A stretch of DNA of 8,952 bases, taken from the IMG/VR virus record IMGVR_UViG_2627854008_000013; one strand, written 5' to 3'. The translations under genes were made by a program, and so were the position numbers. Source of the stretch: a virus. Lineage: Duplodnaviria; Heunggongvirae; Uroviricota; Caudoviricetes. How positions within the stretch are numbered: the stretch's first letter is position 1; each line of letters starts with the position of its first letter. The notes beneath the pieces are model-generated. The model searched no databases. It had not been told where the DNA came from and was given only the letters and a program-made list of their open reading frames with translations. This document shows positions 3,814 to 4,306 of this stretch, one piece after another.

Positions 3814-3950
3814 GGATCATTAAACCTGTCTCTGATAGGCTCATTCTGCTTTTGCGCAAAGCAGTGGGCCTGAGGTTTGCTTGTGAACCCAACGCATGAG
3901 CAGATGGCTGGTGGGTGCCCCTAACACCCACCAGCCGCCCATTTACCACA

Positions 3951-3977
3951 AATAAAAAAGCCTTCAGGACTGAAGGC
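3951..3977 (-). terminator. Rho-independent terminator overlapping the stop codon of the small wHTH ORF
   Basis: Minus-strand hairpin with 7-bp stem GCCTTCA / TGAAGGC (plus 3960-3966 / 3971-3977) and 4-nt loop, followed by UUUUUUAUU (plus 3951-3959). Confidence 0.6.
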
Positions 3978-4161
3978 GTCTGTAACAACCGAACTGATAG
4001 TCTGCCAGACCCGCCATAACAAGTTGGGTCAGTATTAACTGACAGCGTTCGCGTGAAAGGTAAGTATTCTGCGCAATCTCCCCGACTGTCGCCGGTTCGG
4101 TGACGCTTAATTCATTAAACACCACTCTGGCGGTTTCTGTCATATCCTGCTGTTTCAGCAT
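3964..4161 (-). CDS. Small hypothetical protein with winged-helix/HTH-like segment (65 aa from ATG at 4159-4161)
   Basis: ORF MLKQQDMTETARVVFNELSVTEPATVGEIAQNTYLSRERCQLILTQLVMAGL... with HTH-like pattern (T-x-x-EIA ... L-x-x-L-x-x-AG). Purine-rich stretch GGAAAAGGGAAAAAGAC before the ATG. Flanked by intrinsic terminators on both sides. Start could instead be ATG 4141-4143. Coding status uncertain. Confidence 0.4.
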   Translation of the reverse strand: MLKQQDMTETARVVFNELSVTEPATVGEIAQNTYLSRERCQLILTQLVMAGLADYQFGCYRRLQS

Positions 4162-4282
4162 GTCTTTTTCCCTTTTCCGGTTAACGTGACACACCAATAA
4201 CTCTTGTCGAAAAAGCCAGCAAGCTGAAAGACAGGTATTCACCGCCACCAGCACGTTTACTGTACTGGACCGATTTCAGCCA

Positions 4283-4306
4283 TAAAAAAACCCGCTCGCG
4301 GCGGGT
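4283..4306 (-). terminator. Strong rho-independent terminator about 70 nt downstream of Q (candidate tR'-type late terminator)
   Basis: Minus-strand hairpin CCCGC-CGCGA-GCGGG (plus 4291-4305, extendable to an 8-bp stem by A/T pairs) followed by U8 (plus A-run 4283-4290). Confidence 0.7.

Follow-up and report, generated by a model that had tools for sequence, protein, structure and literature searches.

A small winged-helix protein gene and a folded leader RNA form a conserved cassette with M.EcoGII-family adenine methyltransferase genes in lambdoid prophages

Results

The locus and its methyltransferase

We analysed an 8,952-nucleotide (nt) stretch of viral DNA (Caudoviricetes; IMG/VR record IMGVR_UViG_2627854008_000013), referred to below as the window, and concentrated on the region between its antiterminator Q gene and an orphan DNA methyltransferase gene. 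All features described lie on the minus strand, which represents the late-regulatory end of a lambdoid prophage according to the gene order read from annotation, Pfam, Rfam and tRNA scans. On this strand the Q gene (4377..4757) is followed by a first terminator, a promoter-like block (4186..4223), a gene for a 65-amino-acid (aa) winged-helix protein (3964..4161), a terminator-like hairpin overlapping the stop codon of that gene (3951..3977), a structured leader (3814..3950) and the methyltransferase gene (2764..3813). Three of these parts, namely the small winged-helix protein, the folded leader and the methyltransferase, make up a cassette that is widely conserved in lambda-like late operons.

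The methyltransferase is 349 aa long and belongs to the M.EcoGII family of non-specific adenine methyltransferases. It is identical to M.EcoGII at 334 of 350 aligned positions (95%), the reference sequence being that given in Supplementary Table S1 of PMC11551740. It matches PF01555 at 1.4e-43 and displays the motif order of the beta class, with DPPYF at residues 35-39 and FFMGSG near the C-terminus. Neither the window nor any annotated homologous locus contains an endonuclease gene, in keeping with an earlier description of the enzyme as a beta-class orphan. M.EcoGII methylates adenine in any context, is not maintainable on a constitutive plasmid, is unexpressed in its native lysogen, and is active and toxic by itself (PMC5778455). 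In a 2025 review it appears, alongside Mu Mom, simply as a toxic enzyme that is silent in lysogens (PMC12707154). Because of the 95% identity, we infer that the window enzyme would also methylate adenine in any context.

The small gene encodes a winged-helix protein

A first-pass annotation of the window had picked out the 65-codon open reading frame (ORF) for a helix-turn-helix (HTH)-like segment. The comparative data indicate that it is a genuine gene under purifying selection. It begins with ATG, and PGAP annotates the identical 198-nt coding sequence in relatives, as either 'TrmB family transcriptional regulator' or 'hypothetical'. The median dN/dS of the ORF is 0.23 over 38 loci that range from Escherichia to Plesiomonas, and the ORF thereby passed the refuting check set by the first-pass annotation, namely lack of conservation as coding sequence. 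The segment RCQLILTQL(V/A)MAGL, which forms helix 3, is nearly invariant, yet synonymous sites vary freely even there, so that the conservation operates at the protein level. The protein falls in phrog_331, a family of unknown function, with a match at 1e-37. Its close relatives number 335 in a large protein collection, and the family has only 62 clusters at 50% identity. An exhaustive representative search with the protein confirmed this narrow family and returned no informative distant relative, and NCBIfam holds no family for it. The name TrmB was rejected: the sole TrmB match in Pfam (PF01978) is sub-threshold, at 18.1 bits against a gathering cut-off of 25.6, and the second (C-terminal sugar-binding) domain is absent from a protein of 65 aa.

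An AlphaFold model of the protein is confident (pLDDT 92) and depicts a winged helix, with helices at residues 9-16, 26-33 and 37-49 and a two-stranded wing. By structure comparison, the fold is the DNA-binding winged helix of the ArsR/MarR/BlaI type, and the winged-helix matches are overwhelmingly nucleic-acid-binding proteins.

The small gene is linked to the methyltransferase gene

A search with the small protein, restricted to one genome per species, yielded 36 loci from Escherichia, Salmonella, Kluyvera, Citrobacter, Klebsiella, Buttiauxella, Enterobacter, Mixta, Erwinia, Proteus, Providencia, Mangrovibacter and Plesiomonas. An M.EcoGII homologue lies 3' of the small gene on the same strand in 33 of the 36, separated from the small-ORF stop by a spacer of 140-154 nt; two of the exceptions are contig ends. 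The pairing is kept behind at least three types of Q (lambda-type, 933W/21-type and other), which is sometimes 2-3 kb away, and the genes downstream of the pair vary among tRNAs, holins and others. Loci anchored on the methyltransferase in IMG/VR gave a similar picture. Close ones carry an intact 65-aa ORF 149-151 nt upstream in 76 of 77 evaluable cases. Distant ones, with enzymes that share just 62-72% identity with the Plesiomonas copy, have a homologue of the small winged-helix ORF upstream in 61 of 79 evaluable cases. The distant small-ORF subtypes are recognised by profile alone (hhalign probability 96.3%, E = 1.6e-9), and the signatures M-T-E-x-A and [FL]-[IV]-[ILV]-[TE]-Q-[LM] are common to the subtypes. 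As this specific link between small gene and methyltransferase extends through Enterobacterales and further, a dedicated role for the small protein in controlling the orphan enzyme is plausible.

The contiguous cassette is present in 2099 of 5426 (39%) complete Escherichia coli genomes, including C227-11 (O104:H4), EDL933 and E2348/69; its carriers include O104:H4, O157:H7 and enteropathogenic (EPEC) strains. About 12% of matching E. coli records (locus L003, for example) have the small ORF alone, without the methyltransferase. Among four methyltransferase-less loci, the small ORF is damaged in three, by a frameshift (L002), an altered C-terminus (L004) or truncation (L027). At L002 and L004, both from E. 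coli, a 714-nt gene annotated as 'helix-turn-helix domain-containing' or hypothetical replaces the methyltransferase beside the small-ORF remnant. Elsewhere, lpxR/iraM insertions are seen.

The spacer specifies a covarying leader RNA

The spacer between the small ORF and the methyltransferase is highly conserved and corresponds to a structured 5' leader RNA of about 130 nt, delineated by RNAalifold consensus, pair counts and a covariance model. The consensus was obtained with RNAalifold on 32 non-identical loci and contains four helices, P1 to P4. P1 (3896..3942) coincides with a hairpin first described as having 8 bp. The location is correct and the size is not: the inverted repeat is perfect over 12 bp (3906-3917/3925-3936), and as RNA the stem reaches over 47 nt, folding at -33.7 kcal/mol (z = -6.3), with none of 200 shuffles as stable. 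It consists of a lower stem (3937-3942/3896-3901), a 4-nt bulge on the 3' side and an upper 12-bp stem (3906-3936). The lower stem GGGCG/CGCYC and the bulge are conserved, and the upper stem covaries extensively. P2 is a long-range helix in which a 5' strand (3880..3888) pairs with a 3' strand (3815..3824) occupying positions -2 to -13 before the methyltransferase AUG; in consensus, GGUCAcAAG pairs with CUUacUGAUC, ending 1-2 nt before the AUG. Three pairs of P2 covary in alignment A2 and more in alignment A6. Nested within P2 (3838..3870) are P3 (3867-3870/3838-3842, GGCC/GAGCC) and P4 (3858-3864/3846-3852).

P4 is the palindrome at 3846-3864 that had been taken for an operator-like element. 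It is indeed there, with two 7-nt arms separated by 5 nt and lying 33-51 nt 5' of the ATG at 3813, and together with its flanks it folds at -14.9 kcal/mol (z = -3.3). Its reading as a separate element did not hold, as the alignments indicate that hairpin and dyad are helices of one covarying leader RNA. All canonical leaders without exception carry a GATC (a Dam site), which in the window lies at 3815-3818, 1-2 nt before the methyltransferase ATG and within the P2 3' strand; a single distant clade has AGACC in its place.

Covariation was evaluated in two alignments. In the first, 97.7% of cells are paired, and both sides have changed in nine pairs (37 cells). This cell count was reached by none of 500 shuffles and the pair count by two, and in slid controls 28-42% of cells were paired. 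A covariance model built from this alignment (R1) gave one coding-strand match per locus, ending at the methyltransferase ATG, in all of the first 43 module loci. It also matched all 80 close methyltransferase-anchored loci and, among 80 distant ones, gave 55 full and 5 partial matches. In the distant-locus alignment, 90.6% of cells are paired and compensatory changes occur in 19 of 24 pairs (177 cells); its covariation score is 0.41, where shuffles score 0.14 and slid controls no more than 0.085, although the alignment was itself fitted to the model. In the first alignment G-U pairs are confined to the sense strand, which points to the leader acting as RNA rather than as a DNA cruciform or an antisense transcript.

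The methyltransferase start has no Shine-Dalgarno (SD) sequence, the best anti-SD duplex being one of -2.7 kcal/mol at 17-22 nt upstream; the corresponding value for the small ORF is -4.45 kcal/mol. Occlusion of the start region by P2 is predicted from structure and covariation. A search of 3750-4420 against Rfam 15 returned nothing at the gathering threshold, with P26 (24 bits) and isrK (18 bits) as the best sub-threshold matches, and a permissive search yielded nothing for the leader either. Three further subtypes possess a different conserved structured leader with a canonical Shine-Dalgarno sequence. This alternative leader lies between divergent small winged-helix ORFs and methyltransferases, about 165-190 nt before the methyltransferase start (2501). 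It consists of a long-range helix, GCCUUGAGUAC/GUAUUCAAGGC, around two hairpins, followed by AGGAGA-N6-ATG (loci L130, L134, L143, L183, L187, L188, L194, L196, L202 and L203).

Q, the late leader and two terminators

The Q protein (126 aa, Q933/21-like type) matches PF06530 at 1.4e-52, and PGAP names a homologue 'antiterminator Q family protein'. Both terminators proposed by the first-pass annotation are found where it had placed them. The first has a stem at 4288-4308 (8 bp, 5 GC) followed by seven T (4281-4287), and it folds at -22 kcal/mol when a hairpin 5' of it is included. This terminator and the 57 nt 5' of it share 84.5% identity with the segment that directly follows Q in H-19B and in many Stx1/Stx2 phages; in H-19B and Sakai phages, the 3' region of StxS aligns with the window segment that holds the terminator. 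The stretch just after Q in H-19B-type phages is the 3' end of StxS RNA, a transcript of 258 nt that terminates at tR' (PMC7547250). From the terminator scan, the inverted repeat and the H-19B alignment, we annotate 4281..4345 as the 3' part of a short, StxS-like late-promoter transcript ending at tR'. Because Q matches PF06530 and the first terminator aligns with StxS/tR' of H-19B, the proposal that the region is a Q-dependent late-operon leader is supported.

The second terminator-like hairpin, t2, emerged from the same kind of scan and inverted-repeat search. It has a 7-bp stem (3960-3977) and six T (3954-3959), with the TGA stop of the small ORF (3964-3966) in its 3' arm. By itself t2 is unexceptional (folding z = -1.25), and the case for its reality comes from its apparent conservation in other loci: an equivalent hairpin with a T-run lies directly 5' of the leader in most clades, small-ORF-less loci included, and is missing from the Proteus/Providencia clade. 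Terminator-like sites number four in 3700-4900, against 1.2 expected.

Just after Q lies a hotspot of variable insertion: in several loci additional genes, in part on the opposite strand and amounting to 1-3 kb, separate Q from the terminator that precedes the cassette (L007:2474-3869; also L015, L018, L020, L028, L038 and L041).

A promoter-like block precedes the small gene

Scanning with the sigma-70 consensus, in the window and three other loci, detected no promoter that could serve the late operon, the small ORF or the methyltransferase. A conserved block 5' of the small ORF nevertheless looks like a promoter. It comprises TTGCTG (4217-4222), a 17-nt spacer, TATTGG (4194-4199) and then TGTRTG. 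In 32 aligned loci the two boxes are invariant or nearly so, and the spacer is fixed in length and variable in sequence. Every canonical locus, E. coli to Plesiomonas (L006-L043), has the consensus TTGCTG-N17-TAYNTG-TRTG 5' of its small ORF. The last position of the -10 box is an invariant G; the block is thus not canonical for sigma-70 and fails the consensus scan. It may be a weak or activator-dependent promoter, or a protein site. Neither an inverted repeat nor conserved structure was found in it, and the idea of a second RNA element was dropped since RNAalifold predicted no pairs. The block is missing wherever the small ORF is missing. A related version, CAGAGTTAGTGTCGTG, precedes distant small-ORF subtypes, and in some distant subtypes the small ORF directly follows another gene instead of the block.

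Genomic surroundings of the cassette

In minus-strand order, the window begins with an IS3-type transposase fragment, a PerC-like ORF, a Dam-type methyltransferase (PF05869), RusA and a KilA-N protein. A DUF968 protein, antiterminator Q, the cassette region and the 349-aa methyltransferase follow, and then come three tRNAs, an STnc100-like RNA, DUF1737 and a NanS-p-type esterase. The Stx2a phage Stx2_EH1846 has an equal gene order, with stx2AB placed 3' of the tRNAs. The three phage tRNA genes (2465-2714) have a CAT anticodon, Arg-TCG and Arg-TCT, an ileZ-argN-argO-type cluster of Stx-like phages; the CAT tRNA is called Met by ARAGORN and annotated as Ile in RefSeq relatives. A full-length match to STnc100 (2185-2389; 139.5 bits, gathering score 47) lies 3' of these tRNAs, in the place held by stx2AB in Stx2_EH1846. 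The Dam-type gene (6987-7673) encodes another methyltransferase, unrelated to the first, and is located in the early/nin region of the prophage. At 7640-8952 the prophage is interrupted or truncated: the IS3-family transposase fragment extends past the window end, and the adjoining ORF has a C-terminal PerC domain (1.8e-09).

Discussion

A layered control cassette as the favoured reading

We lean, with modest confidence, towards reading the region as a layered expression-control cassette for a host-toxic, non-specific adenine methyltransferase within the Q-dependent late operon of lambdoid phages. Such a cassette probably keeps the cell-toxic enzyme silent until lytic growth. In the lysogen, transcription would stop at tR' and t2, and any read-through message would be closed to translation by P2, leaving no enzyme. 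After induction, Q-modified polymerase would pass both terminators. The small protein, expressed from the shared transcript and perhaps in addition from the promoter-like block 5' of its gene, would then act on the leader and set the level of enzyme translation. Its likeliest contact would be the conserved lower stem and bulge of P1, because no leader element other than P1 is retained throughout the clades that have the canonical protein. Phage DNA would be m6A-modified before packaging and would escape restriction in the next host. We favour the small protein as a modulator or safety device rather than an indispensable activator, because an intact methyltransferase and leader persist without the small gene in several lineages.

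Several observations weigh against this reading. The small protein is acidic to neutral (median pI 5.6, 80% below 7), and helix 3 has no conserved basic residue across the wider family; this combination is atypical for a 65-aa nucleic-acid binder. Its putative target, be it RNA, DNA or the enzyme, is proposed from fold and synteny, and its effect may be either to open P2 or to lock it. The leader, with an intact methyltransferase, is present in 17 distant loci of at least five lineages that have no small ORF in any frame within 2.5 kb, implying that it is able to work without a nearby protein; a terminator-like hairpin and T-run still directly precede it there. The window copy of P2 has one U-U mismatch, and single-sequence minimum-free-energy folds do not always show P2. 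Whereas the Q gene and the terminator of a Q-dependent late leader are both present, no late promoter pR' was found by a consensus scan of the region; since StxS is 258 nt long, the late promoter in H-19B-type phages may lie inside the end of Q. Lastly, a plain RNA hairpin does not explain the palindromic centre of P4, which is discussed with the operator reading below.

A more specific version of the cassette reading, which we offer tentatively and regard as doubtful, would make the winged-helix protein an RNA-binding translational switch. Bound to the lower stem and bulge of P1, it would toggle the leader between a P2-closed state and an open state in which the 5' flank of P1 pairs with the 5' strand of P2; the self-complementary loop of P4 would mediate dimerisation of leaders through loop-loop contacts or provide a second, DNA-level input. 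Complementarity for the open-state helix is present in four sequence versions. This helix has only 5-9 bp, and comparable ones are frequent by chance in segments of such size, so that it serves as a lead only. If true, the switch would represent a new class of protein-responsive RNA switch governing a widely used enzyme family.

Alternative readings

A winged-helix dimer might instead bind the P4 palindrome on double-stranded DNA, in the manner of controller or Aca proteins, and either repress or activate a weak internal promoter or block read-through, just 5' of the methyltransferase. Besides the DNA-binding type of its fold, the centre of P4 speaks for this possibility. Of 45 distinct variants of the apex, 44 are perfectly palindromic about their centre, such as TAGCGCTA, TTGCGCAA, TGTGCACA, TACGCGTA, ATGCGCAT, AACGTT, GTCGAC and TTGCAA, and at least five kinds of self-complementary central tetranucleotide occur (GCGC, TGCA, CGCG, ACGT and TTAA; also TCGA). 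An RNA loop needs no self-complementarity, and a DNA-level reading or a loop-loop interaction therefore stays alive. By inspection, a -35-like TTGCGC and a -10-like TATCAG can also be drawn around the dyad, but the -10-like hexamers end in G or A rather than T and the promoter scan was empty there. The invariant outer half-sites GCTT...AAGC are spaced 7, 8 or 9 nt apart in different clades, by which the half-sites would be rotated against each other, and P4 is nested within covarying helices that use sense-strand G-U pairs. Moreover, the 'MLKHEDMTTT' clade, in which the small gene is retained, lacks P2-P4 and with them the dyad, a P1-like hairpin being all that it has, and the 17 loci without the small gene do have the dyad. 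A specific pair of protein and dyad operator is therefore not what is conserved. Consistent covariation of protein subtype with dyad sequence was sought and not found, and the P4 stem reads CTG or GCG inside one protein subtype. Even with the palindromic apex in its favour, a DNA operator is unlikely.

The small acidic protein might alternatively bind the methyltransferase itself, as an antitoxin-like inhibitor or modulator of enzyme that leaks in the lysogen, leaving the leader as an independent translational brake. The charge of the protein and the lack of conserved basic residues in helix 3 would suit a protein partner, though an acidic overall charge is also common among ArsR/MarR DNA binders. 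The order of small gene, terminator and toxic enzyme would fit as well, together with the promoter-like block of the small gene, because the terminator between the two genes would let the small protein be made in excess. The leader appears to function without the small gene in the 17 loci, and the top Foldseek matches include winged-helix dimerisation domains of methyltransferases, at E ~1e-3 only. As M.EcoGII is active and toxic alone (PMC5778455), a partner would be inhibitory and not required. By contrast, genes for subunits or antitoxins usually abut or overlap those of their partners, and here a conserved, structured 150-nt spacer intervenes; the winged-helix matches are, in addition, overwhelmingly nucleic-acid binders. 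We consider a protein-partner role improbable on this balance.

Stronger doubt attaches to an obligatory activator like Com of phage Mu, strictly needed to open a translation-inhibition helix. The com-mom architecture is matched by a small gene 5' of a toxic modification gene, a hairpin beside a start-occluding helix, and late expression (PMC6483171, PMC3299994), and the possible helix between the P1 5' flank and the P2 5' strand could be its ON state. One distant locus has a weak Com-like zinc-ribbon ORF directly before the methyltransferase: at L197:2358-2483, a 41-aa CxxC...CxxC ORF lies 17 nt before an M.EcoGII-family gene and 3' of a winged-helix ORF and leader match, and its top Pfam match is Zn_ribbon_Com at only E = 0.039. 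Against these likenesses, an intact methyltransferase and leader occur in at least five lineages without a nearby small gene, the small protein is neither basic nor a zinc finger, and the short ON-state helix is of a kind that arises often by chance. A strict requirement for the small protein is thus very unlikely.

That the small ORF is an independent moron merely travelling with the methyltransferase, the hairpins being terminators or mRNA-stability elements, is hardly credible: it would account for the promoter-like block and terminator of the small ORF and for the E. coli records that have this ORF alone, but pairing, order and spacer are kept from Escherichia to Proteus, Providencia, Plesiomonas and the profile-only subtypes while the surroundings recombine, covariation binds the leader into a single nested structure that stops precisely at the start codon, and the small ORF tends to decay after methyltransferase loss.

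Comparison with known systems

The control logic proposed for the layered cassette resembles that of Mu com-mom, as an analogy; the protein fold, the RNA and the transcriptional layer all differ. In both systems, a gene for a protein of about 62-65 aa lies immediately 5' of a late, host-toxic DNA-modification gene that protects against many restriction enzymes, and several control layers are stacked. In both, an mRNA helix beside a hairpin covers the start of the modification gene; here the helix is predicted and covarying (P2, with P1 5' of it). The com-mom logic is described in PMC6483171 and PMC12707154, and com-like genes precede the non-specific adenine methyltransferases hin1523, nma1821 and hia5 in Mu-like prophages (PMC3299994). 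Mu Com is a basic CCCC zinc finger, whereas the small protein here is an acidic-to-neutral winged helix with two cysteines and no CxxC pair. The com and mom genes overlap; the present genes are 150 nt apart with a terminator between. Transcription depends on Dam/OxyR and activator C in Mu and would depend on Q antitermination here. The enzyme here is of the beta class, while Mu has Mom and Mu-like prophages have PF05869-type enzymes. Finally, Com activates mom translation, and for the small protein the comparative data suggest that it is dispensable.

The first-pass annotation had also raised a controller-type (C) regulator of the methyltransferase. The likeness lies in a small HTH-fold gene beside a DNA-modification gene and a palindrome, with the prevention of harmful mis-expression as presumed role. 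C proteins are dimers with a five-helix HTH of the Xre type; they recognise C-boxes in the promoter of their own gene and drive an endonuclease gene that is co-transcribed with it (PMC12707154). The protein here is a winged helix rather than an Xre-type domain of about 80 aa, it has no endonuclease partner, and the dyad lies 3' of its gene, inside an RNA leader and outside its own promoter, the upstream block having no palindrome. The controller identity was rejected on these grounds.

The closest described relatives are M.EcoGI and M.EcoGII of E. coli O104:H4 C227-11, to which the identity of 95% extends over 349 aa, and at the C227-11 locus Q, the small ORF, the 150-nt leader, the methyltransferase and the tRNAs are arranged in the same way. 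The region also shares with the lambdoid late leader (pR', a short RNA of the StxS/6S type and tR') a strong intrinsic terminator within about 70 nt of the Q stop. In 933W/Sp5-type phages, tRNAs and stx directly follow tR', whereas here the cassette sits between tR' and the tRNAs, as it also does in some Stx2a/Stx2c phages.

Significance

Published work on M.EcoGII covers the enzyme and its silence, and not the upstream ORF, the leader or the terminators (PMC5778455, PMC7544214, PMC11551740); our literature search returned no description of the small ORF, the leader RNA, their tie or M.EcoGII regulation. The enzyme is already known; its proposed control would draw on a protein family that is uncharacterised and an RNA motif that is undescribed. 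Chromatin footprinting and RNA methylation both use M.EcoGII as a standard tool. The cassette offers a testable mechanism, comprising two terminators, a start-occluding covarying leader absent from Rfam and a dedicated winged-helix partner from phrog_331, a large phage protein family of unknown function. In some Stx2 phages, the cassette lies between Q and the toxin genes, which places its terminators and leader on the path of toxin transcription. If the proposed control is correct, the cassette would be a second, independently evolved answer to the problem that phage Mu solves by com-mom.

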